Source: Escherichia phage vB_EcoM_CUA3
Reading direction: 5' to 3' (one strand)
Sequence record: PP410321
DNA: 64,000 nt
The notes under the pieces are model-generated. The model searched no databases. It saw nothing but the letters and a program-made list of their open reading frames with translations, and had not been told where the DNA came from. A program made the position numbers and the translations under genes. Position 1 is the stretch's first letter. Every line of letters begins with the position of its first letter. Positions 3,329 to 36,672 of this stretch are shown in pieces.

Positions 3329-4347
3329 CGTGTAACCTCATTATAAAGTTGCGCAGCCATAGTCTTAAGGGCTTTAACATCGTCTTCAGTGTGGCCATCA
3401 GGAAGGGCATCGATATAATCATACATCATATCCAAGAGGGATTTAACTTCATCTTCCTCTTCAGAATCATCGATATCAACACTATTATCTACCTTAGACA
3501 CAATACGTAAAGAGTGAACAACCTTTTCAAGCTCTGATTCGAACTTAGTAAGACCGTCATCAATTTTATCGACTATAACACGAACTGCGATATTTGTAAA
3601 ATCTTTGTAATCGATAGTCGCGTTAGGATAATGAATCTTACGATGCCAACAGGTTTCATTAATGATGAAATCCATTTTATGAGTTTCGGTATCGAAAATC
3701 CAGAAACCACGAGGGTCGTTCTCATCACCTGCAGTAAGGGTCCATGGAGTACCAATGTACTTAACGTTTGCTGCATCAGAAATAGTGTGGAAGTGGCCTG
3801 ACCAAACTTGCTTATACTTTTTAAGGAAATCAGGTTCTAAACCATGGGATTTCATTCCTTTATAGAAATAGAAACCATTTAATTCCCAGTGGCCGATACA
3901 GAAATCTGCTGTAGTATTTTTGATATGGTCCATGATATCGGTCGTGTTTTCTTCACACATCCATGGAATCAAATCAATTTCGGTGCCATCAAAGTTAACC
4001 GTAGTAGGTTTTTCAATAACCTTGATATGGTCATATTTACCCAGAACTTCAGAAGCAGCGTTAGGAGTCAAGGTATTTTTGTAGTGCATATCATGATTAC
4101 CAACAACGGTATACATGGTAATGCCATTAGCTTTAAGCAAATCAGAGATTTCGCGAGCGAATTCCATACACTTATGGGTAATTGCTTTACGAACATCAAA
4201 AATATCACCGTATTGAATCCATACAGTAATACCGTTTGCTTTAGAATAATTAATAGCGTCTTGGATACCTTGACGTTGGATATTCTGTACCCATACATCA
4301 TCGGCCTTAACTCCAAGGTGCCAGTCACCTGTGTTTAATATTTTCAT
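3325..4347 (-). CDS. 47: recombination nuclease subunit, SbcD/Mre11-like (T4 gp47 homolog)
   Basis: N-terminal MKILNTGDWHLG metallophosphoesterase motif, GNHD motif; 340 aa as T4 gp47 (339 aa). Confidence 0.9.
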   Translation of the reverse strand: MKILNTGDWHLGVKADDVWVQNIQRQGIQDAINYSKANGITVWIQYGDIFDVRKAITHKCMEFAREISDLLKANGITMYTVVGNHDMHYKNTLTPNAASEVLGKYDHIKVIEKPTTVNFDGTEIDLIPWMCEENTTDIMDHIKNTTADFCIGHWELNGFYFYKGMKSHGLEPDFLKKYKQVWSGHFHTISDAANVKYIGTPWTLTAGDENDPRGFWIFDTETHKMDFIINETCWHRKIHYPNATIDYKDFTNIAVRVIVDKIDDGLTKFESELEKVVHSLRIVSKVDNSVDIDDSEEEDEVKSLLDMMYDYIDALPDGHTEDDVKALKTMAAQLYNEVTR

Positions 4348-7259: not shown

Positions 7260-7484
7260 TTAAATTTTCCAGTTACCGTTTTCATCAATAAATTTAATCC
7301 AGTCATTTACTGACCACTTAGTCGTATCGCCTTTTGGAGCAACATTTAAAGTGTATAATCCTTGTTTAAAAAGCATACGTTTGATATTCATATTTTCCTC
7401 AGCTATAGTAATAACAGGTATTAGCTTTACGTTTGGCTGTTCGATGTGAAGTATTGTAATCCGGTTCGTCATCCATGTAAACAT
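7260..7484 (-). CDS. hypothetical protein
   Basis: 74-aa ORF directly abutting the downstream gene. Confidence 0.3.
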   Translation of the reverse strand: MFTWMTNRITILHIEQPNVKLIPVITIAEENMNIKRMLFKQGLYTLNVAPKGDTTKWSVNDWIKFIDENGNWKI

Positions 7485-7694
7485 CTTTTTTCAGCTTTCT
7501 CACTTCNNNNNNNNNNNNNNNNNNNNNNNNNNNNNNNNNNNNNNNNNNNNNNNNNNNCATACGTTTCCATTTGTCTGAACGGAAGATATTTTCNNNNNNN
7601 NNNNNNNNNNNNNNNNNNNNNNNNNNNNNNNNNNNNNNNNNNNNNNNNNNNNNNNNNNNNNNNAATTCTTTACGACGGATAGTTTTACCCATAG

Positions 7695-7949
7695 TTACCT
7701 CAGCAGTTTGTATCCAATAAGATTTTTAATGTACTGGACATCTTTGACATCCAAATCCAACTTAATATCTTTCAGGCGTTCAGCCAGAGTAAGAAATGTT
7801 ACGCGTTTCCAATTCTTAACAGGACAGCAATACGTCTTAGGACCGTTGGCGATTTCAATATTTTTATCTGTGACGGTGAGAAAAACCAGACGCTCATCAT
7901 CAAGATTAAGGGTGATGACACTTTTGGTTGAATGTAGTTTCAGGCTCAT
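7695..7949 (-). CDS. hypothetical protein
   Basis: 84-aa ORF; ATGA overlap with upstream small ORF. Confidence 0.35.
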   Translation of the reverse strand: MSLKLHSTKSVITLNLDDERLVFLTVTDKNIEIANGPKTYCCPVKNWKRVTFLTLAERLKDIKLDLDVKDVQYIKNLIGYKLLR

Positions 7950-8122
7950 AATTCAATTTCCTTGGCTATCGAACAAAATATGGCGCGGTCACAAATCATT
8001 TTAATATTAAGTTCAATTATGGTATACCACACGTCCAGGCTAGATATTTCAGTTACTAGAACAGCTTTGCCGTTGATTGAATAATACTGGTCGGCTTTAA
8101 TTTCTTTATCTTGGATAGTCAT
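7946..8122 (-). CDS. hypothetical small protein (58 aa)
   Basis: not in the ORF track (under 60 aa); ATG 8120-8122 preceded by SD gaggag and an early promoter; translates MTIQDKEIKADQYY...; stop overlaps next ATG. Confidence 0.35.
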   Translation of the reverse strand: MTIQDKEIKADQYYSINGKAVLVTEISSLDVWYTIIELNIKMICDRAIFCSIAKEIEL

Positions 8123-8151
8123 AATGTTCTCCTCATGTGTTGATAGGATAG

Positions 8152-8180
8152 ACTATACCACGTGAGGAGAGGAAGTAAAC
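8152..8180 (-). promoter_or_regulatory. T4-type early promoter
   Basis: GTTTAC (8175-8180), 17-nt spacer, TATAGT (8152-8157). Confidence 0.5.
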
Positions 8181-8181
8181 A

Positions 8182-8499
8182 CTAATCTTCAATTAAATCT
8201 CGGTCATAACCAAGTTCAATCAAAAGTGCTTTAAAAGCAGGAATATTTTCTATTTTCTTATTATCAACAAAGATGACAGGATAGCGTATCGCTAAGCTCT
8301 TGAAGCCGGCCCGTTTGGCCAATGATACTATAAGAAGCTTGTCATATACTGCGCCTGACGGCGTCTGATTAATCACAGGATAGAAAGTATGTGGGATAGA
8401 AAGGGAATTTAGGAGCGATAGAACAGCAATGCACCCTGGACAGCGCATGACTGTCTCAGGGATACCGTAAATCTCAATTTTAGTTAACTTTTGGTCCAC
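8182..8499 (-). CDS. glutaredoxin/thioredoxin-fold protein with CPGC active site (NrdH-like)
   Basis: IEIYG...CPGC...PVIFVDNKKI pattern typical of small redoxins; GTG start. Confidence 0.5.
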   Translation of the reverse strand: MDQKLTKIEIYGIPETVMRCPGCIAVLSLLNSLSIPHTFYPVINQTPSGAVYDKLLIVSLAKRAGFKSLAIRYPVIFVDNKKIENIPAFKALLIELGYDRDLIED

Positions 8500-30254: not shown

Positions 30255-31214
30255 TTATTTTTCGAAAGGGCGAATTAAATGATGGTTATCTTGGAACCGC
30301 TTGATGTAGTCTTCNNNACCTAACGTCTTATACATATTCACTACAGCTTGGTAGTTTTCCCAGGCATACTCACGGAACCACCCGGAAGTAATTGAGGTGC
30401 ACACTTTCTCAAGAGCNNNNNNNNNNNNNNNNNATGGTGAAATATTAAAGTCATTAGGAACCTGCGAACGTTCTAGTGCCAACACACAGGTTTCTTCATA
30501 TACACCAGCTAGTTTAATAGCTTCAGGCAAAGCTTCAAACTTCTCACGAGAGGTCATGACTTCAGAACCATCTTTCATATAAAAGGTATATGCAGGGCGG
30601 CCTGCCAATGCCACGGCTTCATGAATAGAGTCATGGTCCAGCGTATAAATGGTATCGTTAAAGAATGACGATTTATTAACATCCAATTTAGGATGAGAAT
30701 AGCTCAACGTTTCTTTCTGACGTTGCAGCATGATTTCTTGGAGCTCTTCGTTCAAGGTTACACCTTTATTACGAAGGTATTTGATGTGAGACATCGTCTT
30801 CAGAAAGAACGGGTTGTTCTTCAAATAACGATGGCTCATTTTGATGGCCAGACAGATATCAGGAGTAGCCCAATAGAAACCTGTAAGACGGTCTTTCTTA
30901 ATATGGTTTTCAGCATATTTCAAGAGACGATAGCTTGAAGTGAAATCCTCATCTTGAAGTTCGCCAGTAATTTCACGGACATTAGTCAGAGCACGAACGA
31001 TATAAGCTTCAAAATAGGTTTCTTTACCATTGTGCATGCATTTAAAGGCCTGGACATCAGGGTTGTCTACATGTACATGGGCGCCGAACATCCGAGCTTT
31101 AAATTGATTCCATGACCCCTGGTCGGCAATAAAATCCCAATCAGAATTTTCGATATATTTACTTTCAATCAAACCAGCGTGGTGCAGTGCACGAGAACCA
31201 ATAACTAGCATCAT
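30255..31214 (-). CDS. hypothetical protein with nucleotidyltransferase-like N-terminal motif
   Basis: 319 aa; N-terminal VIGSRALHHAG...SDWDF resembles the GS...D-x-D motif of the 16922..17892 protein but with longer spacing. Confidence 0.4.
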   Translation of the reverse strand: MMLVIGSRALHHAGLIESKYIENSDWDFIADQGSWNQFKARMFGAHVHVDNPDVQAFKCMHNGKETYFEAYIVRALTNVREITGELQDEDFTSSYRLLKYAENHIKKDRLTGFYWATPDICLAIKMSHRYLKNNPFFLKTMSHIKYLRNKGVTLNEELQEIMLQRQKETLSYSHPKLDVNKSSFFNDTIYTLDHDSIHEAVALAGRPAYTFYMKDGSEVMTSREKFEALPEAIKLAGVYEETCVLALERSQVPNDFNISPXXXXXXALEKVCTSITSGWFREYAWENYQAVVNMYKTLGXEDYIKRFQDNHHLIRPFEK

Positions 31215-31415
31215 AATATTTTCCTCATTAATAAAGACGAGTTACTTCATATTTACCCAGTTCAGATTTTTTGCTTCAATACGCGTTGCGGCTAGATTAG
31301 CAGCCTCTAGTGAAGAAAATTGGACCACTTGGGAAGTATTCTGCCTTACGCCACCTTGTGGGTGAGTAACAAAAACAATAAGAACATTATACATAATATT
31401 TTCCTCAGAGTAAAC

Positions 31416-31664
31416 TTAAATTTCAGCAACGTAATCGTTATGCAATTCCCACATATCATCAGAATTATTCTTAATGATAGGAATTATCTCATTAGAGATT
31501 TCTTCTGCATAAGGGTCATTGATACAGTGAGCATCTTCAAAACGAACACCGTAATCAGACTTCTTATAGGCAAAGCCATAAATCTTTTTAAACTTGGCAC
31601 GACTAATGCGCACCGGCTCATCAGACTTATCAGACTTATCAGACAGTGGAGAGTAATACCACAT
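31416..31664 (-). CDS. hypothetical protein
   Basis: 82-aa ORF containing an SDKSDKSD repeat. Confidence 0.35.
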   Translation of the reverse strand: MWYYSPLSDKSDKSDEPVRISRAKFKKIYGFAYKKSDYGVRFEDAHCINDPYAEEISNEIIPIIKNNSDDMWELHNDYVAEI

Positions 31665-31708
31665 AATGTTCTCCTCATGTTTGTGTAAGGTAATAGTAAC
31701 ACAAGTTT

Positions 31709-32059
31709 TTAGAGTTGTACATCACTTCTGCAATATTCTAAAAATAATTTATCGCTGTCTACTGTATCCCAACGCCGCCAAGATGGATTCCAGACCAAAG
31801 CGTTGTCACCACAATCATTGAGCTTAAAATGGTCATAGTACATAGCTATGTGTCTAGTCTCGTCACCAGAGAACCCTAGTATAGGCTCGCCATGGGTATG
31901 ATACATATGATGGTGCATTGAGAGGTCGCATTTATAAAACATCTCACGTTTACCACGAACGAACAAGAAAGCTTGCCCGTTCATATAGAATTCTTTATCT
32001 GTTTTCAAAAGATATTTGAATACTGAATCTTTGTGCATAAGTCCTCCTACCACATCCAT
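31709..32059 (-). CDS. hypothetical His-rich protein
   Basis: 116 aa, HHHMYHTHGE cluster. Confidence 0.35.
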   Translation of the reverse strand: MDVVGGLMHKDSVFKYLLKTDKEFYMNGQAFLFVRGKREMFYKCDLSMHHHMYHTHGEPILGFSGDETRHIAMYYDHFKLNDCGDNALVWNPSWRRWDTVDSDKLFLEYCRSDVQL

Positions 32060-32068
32060 GTGATTAAA

Positions 32069-32296
32069 TTATTTTCCTAAAGAAATACGGGTAGGTTTTT
32101 TACCAAAGTATTCTTCATAAGAGCCATCTAAACGACCCGCTTTAGACCGACAATACGAATCGTACTTTTTGTAATAAGTCATCTCGGTATTATAACGCGG
32201 GTGTCTATCGGCCATAATAATACTTAATGGCCAACCTTTGGCATAATCGCGAAGACCATTTATTTTACGAATGTATCTTTTCTTTAATTTTAGCAT
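32069..32296 (-). CDS. hypothetical basic protein
   Basis: 75-aa ORF. Confidence 0.3.
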   Translation of the reverse strand: MLKLKKRYIRKINGLRDYAKGWPLSIIMADRHPRYNTEMTYYKKYDSYCRSKAGRLDGSYEEYFGKKPTRISLGK

Positions 32297-32514
32297 GAGC
32301 TCGGGTACCAGATTTTACCATCAGAACGAGCAACGAAGGTACGTCCAGCTTCTTCACCATAACAAGAGCTGTTCAACCAGTCTTCGAGACGAACTTCACC
32401 GTCATAATCATCGAGCTCAACACCGAAATCCTGAGCAGAAGCCATTTCTTTTACTTTCTTATACAGTGCAGCCAGTTCGAGTGCCGCTTTTTCTAATTCA
32501 TTAATATCAGTCAT
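32290..32514 (-). CDS. small protein, paralog family with C-terminal W-x-S-S-x-C (member 1)
   Basis: 74 aa, N-terminal helix, ends ...GKIWYPSSC. Confidence 0.5.
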   Translation of the reverse strand: MTDINELEKAALELAALYKKVKEMASAQDFGVELDDYDGEVRLEDWLNSSCYGEEAGRTFVARSDGKIWYPSSC

Positions 32515-32526
32515 TTTTTTNANNCC

Positions 32527-32736
32527 TTAGCAAGACATAGAGGAGCTAAACCAGAAACCTTCACCTTCAGGAATACCGTAATCATCACGAACCCATTCGT
32601 AATCATCATATTCCGGACTAGAAGCTGGAATATATTCTTCGCCACCGGCGTGGAAGTGCTGACCTGTTTCGTCAGCCACGGACTGGCCTTTACGTACTAA
32701 TTCACGGATTTGTTTTTCAATTTCATCAATAGTCAT
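32527..32736 (-). CDS. small protein, paralog family member 2
   Basis: 69 aa, ends ...GFWFSSSMSC. Confidence 0.5.
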   Translation of the reverse strand: MTIDEIEKQIRELVRKGQSVADETGQHFHAGGEEYIPASSPEYDDYEWVRDDYGIPEGEGFWFSSSMSC

Positions 32737-32745
32737 TTTATTACC

Positions 32746-32943
32746 TTAGCATTCGTAAGAGGATGATACCCAAGAGGTACCACTAATTGTAATACAACCA
32801 TTATAAAGCGTGATATGACGTTCCAGGTTACGTTGACCATCGATATAGATATCAGCTTCTTCGCGTTCTTCTTTACAAATCTGGATAACGTTTTCAATAG
32901 CTGCGGCTGCAGTACGGATTGCACAATCTAATTCACGAGACAT
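32746..32943 (-). CDS. small protein, paralog family member 3
   Basis: 65 aa, ends ...TSWVSSSYEC. Confidence 0.5.
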   Translation of the reverse strand: MSRELDCAIRTAAAAIENVIQICKEEREEADIYIDGQRNLERHITLYNGCITISGTSWVSSSYEC

Positions 32944-32952
32944 AATATTTCC

Positions 32953-33234
32953 TTAACATTCAGCAGAAGAGGACACCCAGCCGCCATTTTCTAGGTCGGT
33001 TGTGTAGTCATGAGTATTAACAATAGCCCATTCAGGATGACCATGTTCTTCCCAATGAGCAAGGTCAGCTTTCAAGGCGCCAGGAGAATAATAGTCACCG
33101 CCCATACCGCGAGCAGGGTATATATTAAAATGAGTCTCATATTTGTCTGCAATTTCCTCAGCACGACGAATAGCTTTATGGATGTCATTTACTGCGGCCA
33201 GNNNNTCTTTATTTTTACGGTAATCATTCATCAT
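32953..33234 (-). CDS. small protein, paralog family member 4
   Basis: 93 aa, ends ...GGWVSSSAEC. Confidence 0.5.
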   Translation of the reverse strand: MMNDYRKNKXXLAAVNDIHKAIRRAEEIADKYETHFNIYPARGMGGDYYSPGALKADLAHWEEHGHPEWAIVNTHDYTTDLENGGWVSSSAEC

Positions 33235-33243
33235 AGCGTTTCC

Positions 33244-33534
33244 TTAGCACATTGCCGAAGAGGAGACCCAAGCACCAACTGTAACGACACCGTTTTCAAC
33301 TTCGCCGCCGTTGTTTTCAATTTCATCTTTAAACCACTGGGAGCATTCATAACCGACCGGATAGTATGTACGTCCTGAACCATAATCGCCGGTACCGAAT
33401 TGGATACCATACTTATCGGCAATAGCTTCACATTTATGTTCGATGATATCTACTTTACCGAGTAGAGCATAGATAGCCTTTTCTGCAGATTTCTCGTCAT
33501 TGTATTCAGGGATTTCAATTTCAATTTTATTCAT
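33244..33534 (-). CDS. small protein, paralog family member 5
   Basis: 96 aa, ends ...GAWVSSSAMC. Confidence 0.5.
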   Translation of the reverse strand: MNKIEIEIPEYNDEKSAEKAIYALLGKVDIIEHKCEAIADKYGIQFGTGDYGSGRTYYPVGYECSQWFKDEIENNGGEVENGVVTVGAWVSSSAMC

Positions 33535-33884: not shown

Positions 33885-34413
33885 TTTGAACCTCTTTAGC
33901 GTATTCACGGCATTCTTTAATAAAATTATTAAGCTTACGTTGCTGTTTACGACTTTCTAATGTATACTCGTCTGCCAAAATAGTAAGTTCACCTTTATCG
34001 TAATTTTTAATATCCGAATAACTCGGGCGGCGGTCGACCATTCCAAATACATCACCGTTTTCTAGTGCCACATAACATACTAAATGATAATCATCATCTG
34101 CATCATTAATATGTACACAGTCGGTACTCTCGTTTAAAGAATATACCGAATATCTCACTCCGGCGAATTTAGCACTCTGTATACCCAATNNNNNGTCGAT
34201 GATTTCTAAAGCTTCTGCAAAAGAAAGGTCTTCAGCTAAAGCAAAGATAAAGGGTAATTTGGTAGTATCGCCACGGCTAGATGTTCTGCTTAAGAAATCG
34301 TTTGAATAGCCTAGGTCTTGGCGAATTCTATAAAGAACTGAATTGGTTTCATGGGAAAGACCACTATTTTTAAACCAATCAATATTTGATATCAAATTAT
34401 CATATAAACTCAT
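33871..34413 (-). CDS. hypothetical protein
   Basis: 180-aa ORF; contains NNFIKECRE near C-terminus. Confidence 0.4.
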   Translation of the reverse strand: MSLYDNLISNIDWFKNSGLSHETNSVLYRIRQDLGYSNDFLSRTSSRGDTTKLPFIFALAEDLSFAEALEIIDXXLGIQSAKFAGVRYSVYSLNESTDCVHINDADDDYHLVCYVALENGDVFGMVDRRPSYSDIKNYDKGELTILADEYTLESRKQQRKLNNFIKECREYAKEVQNGTA

Positions 34414-35098: not shown

Positions 35099-35128
35099 AT
35101 TATACCCTGTCCTCAGAGGTTTGTAAAC
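35099..35128 (-). promoter_or_regulatory. T4-type early promoter
   Basis: GTTTAC (35123-35128), 18 nt, TATAAT (35099-35104). Confidence 0.55.
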
Positions 35129-35531: not shown

Positions 35532-36241
35532 TATGCTCTCCTTCACTCTGTTGTTTTGATAGGTCTATAGTATCATNTTNNNNNNNNNNNNNNNNNNNNN
35601 NNNNNNNNNNNNNNNNNNNNNNNNNNNNNNNNNNNNNNNNNNNNNNNNNNNNNNNNNNNNNNNNNNNNNNNNNNNNNNNNNNNNNNNNNNNNNNNNNNNN
35701 NNNNNNNNNNNNNNNNNNNNNNNNNNNNNNNNNNNNNNNNNNNNNNNNNNNNNNNNNNNNNNNNNNNNNNNNNNNNNNNNNNNNNNNNNNNNNNNNNNNN
35801 NNNNNNNNNNNNNNNNNNNNNNNNNNNNNNNNNNNNNNNNNNNNNNNNNNNNNNNNNNNNNNNNNNNNNNNNNNNNNNNNNNNNNNNNNNNNNNNNNNNN
35901 NNNNNNNNNNNNNNNNNNNNNNNNNNNNNNNNNNNNNNNNNNNNNNNNNNNNNNNNNNNNNNNNNNNNNNNNNNNNNNNNNNNNNNNNNNNNNNNNNNNN
36001 NNNNNNNNNNNNNNNNNNNNNNNNNNNNNNNNNNNNNNNNNNNNNNNNNNNNNNNNNNNNNNNNNNNNNNNNNNNNNNNNNNNNNNNNNNNNNNNNNNNN
36101 NNNNNNNNNNNNNNNNNNNNNNNNNNNNNNNNNNNNNNNNNNNNNNNNNNNNNNNNNNNNNNNNNNNNNNNNNNNNNNNNNNNNNNNNNNNNNNNNNNNN
36201 NNNNNNNNNNNNNNNNNNNNNNNNNNNNNNNNTATTTATAC

Positions 36242-36439: not shown

Positions 36440-36515
36440 TGGTCGAGACAGTAGGGATCGAACCTACGACCCAGGACTTAGAAGGTCCTTGCTCTTCCTT
36501 CTGAGCTATGCCTCG
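36440..36515 (-). tRNA. tRNA-Arg (anticodon UCU)
   Basis: manual cloverleaf: acceptor cgaggca/tgtctcg, D-arm gctc...gagc, anticodon loop cuUCUaa, T-arm gtagg-ttcgatc-cctac, encoded CCA. Confidence 0.8.
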
Positions 36516-36519
36516 TATT

Positions 36520-36594
36520 TGGCGGACATGCATGGATTCGAACCATGGACCAATTGATTAACAGTCAACTGCTCTACCACTGAGCTACACATCC
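36520..36594 (-). tRNA. tRNA-Asn (anticodon GUU)
   Basis: manual cloverleaf: acceptor ggatgtg/catgtcc with G-U pairs, D-arm gctc-agtggta-gagc, anticodon loop cuGUUaa, T-arm catgg-ttcgaat-ccatg, encoded CCA. Confidence 0.75.
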
Positions 36595-36598
36595 AAAT

Positions 36599-36672
36599 TG
36601 GTGGCCCTGGGTGGAATCGAACCACCATCCAGCGATTATGAGTCGCTCGCTTGACCGTCCAGCTACAGGGCC
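36599..36672 (-). tRNA. tRNA with CAU anticodon (Met or lysidine-type Ile)
   Basis: manual cloverleaf: acceptor ggccctg/cagggcc, anticodon stem agcga/tcgct, loop cuCAUaa, T-arm ggtgg-ttcgatt-ccacc, encoded CCA. Confidence 0.75.

Follow-up and report, generated by a model that had tools for sequence, protein, structure and literature searches.

Small phage proteins with a shared Ser-Ser-Cys C-terminus are encoded ahead of a predicted nucleotidyltransferase: a possible two-part system

Two described pairs, each made of a nucleotidyltransferase (NTase) and a small protein encoded beside it, come closest to the locus treated here. MenA1, a protein of 68 amino acids (aa) encoded upstream of the NTase MenT1, blocks the active site of MenT1 (PMC10435456), and MntA poly-adenylylates its small neighbour HepT (PMC7641770). 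Another enzyme to be kept in mind is RlaP, which adds one or two nucleotide monophosphates (NMPs) to the 3′ ends of RNA (bioRxiv 10.64898/2025.12.29.696909). The locus in question lies on a stretch of 64,000 nucleotides from Escherichia phage vB_EcoM_CUA3 (sequence record PP410321), called the window below. It holds five tandem small genes, A to E, whose products all end in the same short C-terminal tail, W-x-[S/P]-S-…-C, followed directly by the stop codon; we call them tail proteins and the conserved end the tag. What is new here is the linkage of such tail genes to a gene for a 300-320-aa protein that is predicted to be an NTase. This linkage to a nucleotide-transferring enzyme points to an unstudied two-part system and possibly to a new protein modification. 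The tail genes of the window, and one element inside the last of them, are the following.

33244-33534, minus strand: tail protein A, 96 aa, C-terminus GAWVSSSAMC, central GDYGSGRTYYP loop; matches phrog_899 (E-value 1e-22); ratio of non-synonymous to synonymous substitution rates (dN/dS) against phage JS98, 0.025
32953-33234, minus strand: tail protein B, 93 aa, C-terminus GGWVSSSAEC, central GMGGDYYSPG loop; phrog_899 (3e-18); dN/dS 0.21
32746-32943, minus strand: tail protein C, 65 aa, C-terminus TSWVSSSYEC, N-terminus MSRELDC; phrog_4882 (2e-36); dN/dS 0.14
32527-32736, minus strand: tail protein D, 69 aa, C-terminus GFWFSSSMSC, EEYIPA loop; phrog_899 (2e-13); zero non-synonymous changes against JS98
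32290-32514, minus strand: tail protein E, 74 aa, C-terminus KIWYPSSC with a shorter W-to-C spacing of 5; phrog_899 (4e-10); dN/dS 0.06
32353-32382, minus strand: second, internal motif copy of protein E (residues 45-54, DWLNSSCYGE), about 20 residues ahead of the terminal WYPSSC

Where do such genes stand in other phages? In RB69, JS98, Marfa, 44RR2 and CC2 they always precede the NTase gene, and in the window this gene is found 1.1 kb downstream of the array. It lies outside the segment 32290-33534 that the first-pass annotation of the window had considered and was unnoticed there. Two entries are needed to describe this side of the locus.

30255-31214, minus strand: 319-aa protein with DUF7277 and DUF7275, predicted Pol-beta-type NTase, equivalent to RB69 ORF134c and JS98 orf122
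31242-32296, minus strand: four open reading frames (ORFs) of 75, 116, 82 and 50 aa between the array and the NTase gene, with matches to phrog_7065, phrog_9796 and JS98 orf123 (phrog_3723)

To survey the linkage, 80 viral loci were fetched with an alignment of 114 NTase homologues; in metagenomic loci the first ATG of each ORF served as its start. Of 78 viral loci, 73 have one or more tag-bearing ORFs within 4 kb upstream of the NTase and on its strand. The tag closes 201 of the 834 open frames in the 2 kb directly upstream, while the other 1-kb bins of the same strand hold 0-3 each, except for 8 at 2-3 kb upstream, and the opposite strand holds 4 in total. Since every position and frame was searched with one and the same expression, this positional enrichment is independent of how the motif was defined. 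The loci come from T4-like phages of enterobacteria, Aeromonas and Acinetobacter, from jumbo phages of 350 kb and from metagenomic contigs, and they include the Phapecoctavirus tuntematon and the Otagovirus phiPsa381. When all ORFs of 94 loci were clustered all against all, the NTase was present in 86 loci and the largest tail cluster in 72; a third widely shared component was not found among them, the next family occurring in at most 33 loci. The linkage also holds in the other direction, for 20 of 20 viral contigs found with a type-E profile carry the NTase as well. Among 50,697 deposited phage genomes, 733 carry the NTase; among 185,579 species genomes, only six contigs do, all of them metagenome-assembled, five of which have upstream tail ORFs. 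Thus, tail genes and NTase form a tight, reciprocal two-gene module. The tail side of this module is variable, with 1-6 copies per phage and no universal subtype, and the surroundings vary as well: the block adjoins nrdD in 44RR2 and lies near rnlA in CC2. The four ORFs that separate array and NTase gene in the window look like lineage-specific insertions; they are missing at that position in Aeromonas phages, where protein E abuts the NTase gene.

Some phages lack one or both parts. In T4, of which 163 of 169 kb were scanned, neither tail proteins nor the NTase were found. The product of T4 nrdC.3, considered as a displaced NTase homologue, gave no match. T4 nrdC.11 (7436-8446 of locus L103), annotated as a nucleotidyltransferase, starts with a G-S…D-x-D-like sequence, gives no DUF7275 profile match and is presumably an unrelated RlaP-type enzyme. 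Enterobacter phage CC31 and four further loci (L069, L070, L073 and L085) keep the NTase, including the residue C271 discussed below, and have no upstream tail ORF; here the partner may have been lost or relocated. Those four loci carry, about 5 kb downstream and on the opposite strand, an ORF of 65 aa that ends in …EEYWDDSGC.

The tag itself is distinctive enough to be searched for. A six-frame scan of the 64 kb with W-x-[SP]-S-x(0-3)-C-stop returned exactly the five genes, and 200 shuffles of the window gave a mean of 0.095 and a maximum of 1 match. The first-pass annotation had described these five minus-strand ORFs and had supposed that their motif, being written in different codons, is conserved as protein; the ORFs were all recovered at those positions, and the supposition has held. 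Tail nucleotide identity between the window copies is 7-17 of 24. Among 189 distinct tails of other phages, the Ser three residues after the Trp (W+3) is encoded by all six Ser codons, from both codon boxes, both Cys codons and all three stop codons are in use (the five window genes all stop with TAA), and the gap to the next start ranges from -1 to more than 19 nt. With Ser codons, stops and junctions varying in this way, it is the protein sequence of the motif that is conserved, and a junction signal is excluded. Moreover, all five genes have a dN/dS of 0-0.21 relative to their JS98 orthologues, similar to that of the neighbouring NTase gene, and therefore the five ORFs are real, constrained genes. 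Four of the five window junctions read TG[CT]TAAGG, so that the stop overlaps the ribosome-binding site of the next gene; at 32290-32296 the ATG of the next gene (MLKLKK…) lies inside the final Ser-Cys codons of protein E (tcATGctaa), which suggests translational coupling.

It is to be noted that the expression used for collecting tails required the Trp and the terminal Cys and allowed Ser or Ala at W+3. Only the preference at W+3 therefore counts as a finding, and the residue is Ser in every tail protein collected although Ala was allowed. Ser at W+4 is nearly invariant, and Gly usually stands just before the Trp. The spacing of the terminal Cys varies: of 197 proteins, 136 have it at W+7, 51 at W+5 and 8 at W+8, and 74 have no other Cys. 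The internal second copy seen in protein E occurs in 27 of the 197 upstream tail proteins; at D45, W46, S49, C51, G53 and E54 of this copy, 26 type-E sequences show no variation. A metagenomic protein of 46 aa (3659-3799 of locus L089) contains little besides the double motif.

The proteins of the window are annotated as hypothetical wherever they recur, namely as JS98 orf126-129 (where gene D, of 69 aa, has no annotation), RB69 ORF136c-139c and 44RR2 ORF063c/064c. Each type has a signature: GDYGxGRTYYP in A, GMGGxYxSPG in B, whose GMGG loop is found again in distant members, the MSRELDC start in C, EEYIPA in D and the internal DWL[NS]SSCYGE in E. With these, each paralogue has orthologues across genera, in Dhakavirus, Mosigvirus, Marfavirus, Aeromonas phages and Phapecoctavirus, and the bodies have diverged to a mean column identity of 12-30%. 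From their sequences, the five genes are ancient paralogues of one family and not recent duplicates. The paralogy proposed in the first-pass annotation is supported, and its suggestion of a diversifying set is not, since the paralogues have cross-genus orthologues and are under purifying selection. In RB69 the type-A gene looks split (3489-3795 of locus L004): ORF139c, with 71 aa, matches residues 4-69 of protein A, and the tail (…GAWVSSPALC) lies in another frame, overlapping ORF138c. A frameshift or a sequencing error is the probable cause; the type-A gene of Mosigvirus phiE142 is intact, with 101 aa.

The family had not been recognised in the first pass, and wider searches leave it so. Four proteins match phrog_899 and protein C matches phrog_4882, both of unknown function; Pfam, NCBIfam, PADLOC and the sequences of the PDB gave no relative, and searches of 5.8 billion proteins and 1.8 billion representatives returned only uncharacterised small proteins of 46-135 aa, those with a source name coming from large phages. 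Convincing domain fusions were absent among these matches, a single one of 865 aa being partial and weak, and tail-bearing ORFs of 118-159 aa showed no extra domain. A broad profile of 106 tail sequences was too diffuse and recovered less than the narrow one. Literature searches with the PHROG identifiers, the RB69 ORF names, and phage NTase together with C-terminal cysteine gave nothing relevant. AlphaFold models protein A with confidence (predicted local distance difference test, pLDDT, 91.6) as a hairpin of two helices and a small sheet; the Trp and the first Ser of the tail are placed in the last strand, and the later residues form a short helix. A fold search with an AlphaFold model of a tail protein found no solved structure of the same fold, and the small protein is predicted to have a novel one. 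Neither sequence, profile nor fold comparison thus connects the family to a characterised one.

The partner enzyme was analysed by way of its JS98 orthologue and a database protein of 91% identity, because the window gene has masked bases at 30315-30317 and 30417-30433. A Pfam scan at E≤1 finds only PF23940 and PF23942 (DUF7277 and DUF7275), with no match to DUF1814 or PF10127. Profile searches of PADLOC, NCBIfam and PDB sequences found nothing, and the literature search found no paper mentioning either DUF. In the alignment of homologues, G5-S6, D24-x-D26 and E68 are invariant, which is the signature of Pol-beta nucleotidyltransferases; a helix with K124-x-x-H127 and a motif H193-D194-x-x-H197 are conserved as well. 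The structural model is confident, and its fold comes closest to the MenT toxins and antibiotic nucleotidyltransferases: it matches MenT1, the aminoglycoside nucleotidyltransferase ANT(2'') (score 8.4), TglT/MenT3 (8.4) and MenT4 (7.7), and further TM1012, an H. pylori JHP933-type protein and LnuA. About 143 of the 319 residues align in these matches, and the C-terminal half is unmatched. Alignment and model together show an intact catalytic motif in a predicted MenT/ANT-like fold, that is, in a group that nucleotidylylates hydroxyl groups.

A comparison of homologues with and without tail partners is suggestive in another way. Residue 271 is Cys in 86 of 86 tail-associated NTases, and R128 and H173 are kept with few exceptions (Lys for R128 in L055 and L057, Thr for H173 in L086). 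In four distant homologues without tail partners, from Gordonia, Streptomyces and Vibrio phages, the protein is shorter, C271 has become Ile, and R128 and H173 are also replaced, while all catalytic residues are retained. R128 adjoins the universally conserved K124/H127 helix, and there is a hint that the residues gained together with the tails may lie near the active site; the covariation is only suggestive because about three divergent lineages are compared. Around distant or tail-less homologues, nicotinamide adenine dinucleotide (NAD) salvage genes (nicotinamide phosphoribosyltransferase and ribose-phosphate pyrophosphokinase), RNA ligases or Sir2-like genes adjoin the NTase, namely in Vibrio phage K470, DSS3_VP1, Streptomyces phage TunaTartare, tuntematon and phi-Grn1. 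These neighbours may hint at the enzyme's ancestral substrate. An RNA-repair context was also considered, and its signal is too weak to carry a conclusion: 7 of 54 diverse loci have tRNA genes within 5 kb of the NTase, and an RNA ligase, judged by similarity and annotation, is near it in three (TunaTartare, DSS3_VP1 and L093), with rnlA about 4 kb off in CC2.

As to the genomic setting, the window belongs to a JS98-like Dhakavirus, a T4-like coliphage, with phage NC-G as its best match (94% identity), and is collinear with JS98 from gene e to the tRNA genes. The array lies between e and the tRNAs, as the first reading of the sequence had placed it. The tRNA genes and the remaining features of this region are listed here.

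36440-36672: tRNA genes
35099-35127, minus strand: candidate sigma-70-like early promoter upstream of e.6, TTTACA-17-TATAAT, 11 of 12 consensus matches
31386-31414, minus strand: candidate sigma-70-like promoter immediately before the 50-aa ORF and the NTase gene, TTTACT-17-TATAAT, 10 of 12 consensus matches
35580-36232: masked run of 653 bases
33202-33205: four masked bases in the gene of tail protein B
32521-32524: masked run at the junction of genes D and E

In total 13,011 of the 64,000 bases of the window are masked (N). As a consensus match, the candidate promoter at 35099-35127 could drive e.6, an e.3-like gene and the run of tail genes; between it and the array, the minus strand has a single terminator-like site, a weak one at 34164. 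Sigma-70-like matches in the region are, in total, not above shuffled expectation, and both candidates, as matches to a consensus, are compatible with early expression.

How can a short tag be kept so strictly on bodies that differ so much? In the first-pass annotation the tail was floated as a site for modification, lipidation or metal binding. Lipidation is unlikely: all five window proteins are acidic (isoelectric point, pI, 4.2-5.4; the median of the wider family is 4.4), and no hydrophobic segment, signal sequence or lipobox was found in them. As for metal, an intramolecular site is excluded for the many members whose terminal Cys is their only one, so that a Cys-based site must be intermolecular. 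The tail as a modification site is a reasonable reading of the sequences, and it gains support because the obligate neighbour is a nucleotidyltransferase. We therefore propose, tentatively and at somewhat less than even chances, that the NTase acts on the tail proteins at the tag, transfer of an NMP to the invariant Ser being the most likely chemistry. The module would have two components, one Pol-beta-type NTase and a changing set of small and acidic folded proteins, one to six in number. The tail proteins would share little but an N-terminal helix and the tag, G-W-x-x-S-S-(x-x)-C-COOH. Its Trp would anchor the last beta-strand of the small protein's own fold, and the invariant Ser-Ser and the terminal Cys would be presented to the active-site region of the NTase. 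The enzyme would then move an NMP from a nucleoside triphosphate to the hydroxyl of Ser W+3, and this modification may switch or arm the small proteins early in infection. The reported action of MntA on HepT offers a precedent for the chemistry. Several divergent acceptors with one shared site and one enzyme fit a substrate or adaptor better than an antitoxin. We infer the physical interaction, the covalent modification, the acceptor residue and the biological target. A wider version, in which this is a dedicated protein-tagging system of large virulent phages and the NTase attaches nucleotides to the Ser or Cys of the tag on small effectors for host takeover or counter-defence, is possible, with the balance leaning against it; an anti-defence role of the tail proteins, also suggested from the window alone, is possible.

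Several observations weigh against modification of the tag. The AlphaFold model of protein A has its tail as a strand and a short helix (pLDDT ~79), and thus the tag could be mainly structural rather than a free peptide. Since tail-less homologues exist, in the Gordonia, Streptomyces and Vibrio phages and in CC31, the NTase must have some activity that does not depend on tails. The lineages behind the covariation of C271, H173 and R128, about three independent ones, are also the most divergent. Four lineage-specific ORFs stand between array and NTase in the window. Finally, the invariant terminal Cys is explained neither by nucleotidylylation of Ser nor by any rival model.

The chief rival takes the tail proteins as antitoxin-like inhibitors or regulators of the NTase, the tail plugging the active site as a pseudo-substrate. 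The enzyme would then be of the MenT/AbiEii kind, modifying RNA ends for host shut-off or RNA repair, and the tail proteins would time or restrain its activity. We regard this as unlikely, though it deserves to be taken seriously. Up to six ancient and divergent antitoxin paralogues per toxin would be unusual, the tail proteins have no sequence or fold similarity to MenA1 or AbiEi, and the NTase has no sequence match to DUF1814. Furthermore, the tail-less NTases keep all catalytic residues, and an NTase is therefore apparently tolerated without inhibitor.

Alternatively, the tail proteins might be interchangeable adaptors, docked on the NTase by the tail and each recruiting, by its variable body, a different target for nucleotidylylation (a host protein, an RNA or a defence factor). 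One invariant short motif on divergent bodies, in varying copy number around a single conserved enzyme, is what such a model would give, and the tail partners would be accessory because NTases without them exist. On the other hand, the bodies are very small (46-100 aa) and without a recognisable binding domain, and the invariant residues are nucleophiles (Ser, Ser and Cys) rather than typical docking residues, so that we hold this model to be distinctly improbable.

It is more doubtful still that the tail works independently of the NTase, as a structural cap or an intermolecular thiol or metal site, and that the linkage reflects only co-regulation in an early operon. With the Trp in the final strand of a compact fold, the AlphaFold model agrees with this idea, the internal motif of protein E implies that a free C-terminus is not always required, and members with only the terminal Cys would, as said, need an intermolecular site. 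Yet the linkage survives in very different contexts and phage families while every other neighbour changes, and a purely structural motif needs no immediate stop codon in about 200 divergent proteins.

Several small genes ahead of one enzyme also resemble the layout of ribosomally synthesised and post-translationally modified peptides (RiPPs), with the tail proteins as precursors whose Ser…Cys tail would become a thioether, as in lanthionine or the aminovinyl-cysteine (AviCys) type of ring, to yield secreted or bioactive peptides. S-x-x-C-COOH has the spacing of an AviCys ring, and Ser-rich tails with Cys are typical of lanthipeptide cores. Nevertheless, across the 94 loci only the NTase is conserved nearby, with no dehydratase, cyclase, LanD-type decarboxylase, protease or exporter, the conserved and variable parts are reversed relative to the leader and core pattern, the proteins are confidently folded domains of 65-100 aa, and the class-2 tails (W-x-x-S-S-C) lack the Ser at i-3, all of which makes a RiPP origin very improbable. 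Least of all can the tag be a nucleotide-level junction signal of stop and Shine-Dalgarno sequence (TGCTAAGGA) in ORFs that are not meaningfully expressed, for although TG[CT]TAAGG supplies the next ribosome-binding site at four window junctions, the diversity of codons, stops and junctions together with the low dN/dS and the confident protein models refutes it, and with it the concern raised in the first pass.

The tail family is found in several phage lineages, including therapy-relevant phages of E. coli, Klebsiella, Enterobacter, Acinetobacter, Aeromonas and Pseudomonas, and neither it nor the NTase has been named, treated in a paper or solved as a structure. The experimental handle is a good one: an invariant tag of eight residues, one enzyme with obvious catalytic residues and, in T4, a close relative without both in the part scanned. 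Nucleotidylylation of the tag, if it occurs, would add a new protein modification to those of viruses and yield a portable pair of enzyme and tag, something categorically new; if the small proteins restrain a MenT-like enzyme, virulent phages would have a circuit like that of toxin and antitoxin. Either outcome would explain a conserved block of the 'hyperplastic' region of T4-like phages.

Here, we return to the known systems. The ubiquitin-like and sulfur-carrier proteins differ from the tail proteins in ending with Gly-Gly instead of Cys; the tail proteins have no beta-grasp match, and their neighbour is a Pol-beta enzyme and not an E1. Loci of RiPPs with multiple precursors, such as prochlorosins and AviCys peptides, share the tandem small genes before one enzyme and the C-terminal Ser and Cys, but the tail proteins are folded, it is their C-terminus that is conserved and the rest that varies, and RiPP enzymes are absent. 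ANT(2'') and LnuA/LinB act on small molecules without partner proteins and have no sequence similarity to the phage NTase. RlaP (PF10127) is likewise a phage-borne Pol-beta NTase, and a few distant DUF7275 homologues adjoin an RNA ligase (TunaTartare and DSS3_VP1); however, the phage NTase does not match PF10127, an RNA ligase or tRNA lies within 5 kb in a minority of loci, and RlaP has no tail-protein partners.

Two systems remain. In MntA-HepT, an NTase covalently poly-AMPylates the small protein of the adjacent gene (PMC7641770), which is the chemistry proposed here. HepT, however, is an RNase of the HEPN type modified on Tyr, whereas the tail proteins have no HEPN match in Pfam and an unrelated fold; the phage NTase, at 300-320 aa, is no minimal MNT, the genes stand in the opposite order, and the phage module offers several candidate acceptors. 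With MenAT and AbiE, the phage NTase shares the Pol-beta fold with the catalytic G-S…D-x-D…E. It differs from them in having no sequence match to DUF1814 and about 150 additional C-terminal residues, and its partners are alpha/beta proteins, neither the helices of MenA1 nor the winged helix-turn-helix and kinase combination of AbiEi/COG5340. Up to six tail paralogues per enzyme carry a Ser-Ser-Cys C-terminal tag that MenA proteins do not have, and the module resides in virulent phages, not in bacterial chromosomes. By the fold or domain of the partner and by the sequence family of the enzyme, the module stands outside both MenAT and MntA-HepT; in its overall design, the tail-NTase module resembles the pairs of an NTase and a small partner represented by MenAT1 and MntA-HepT.

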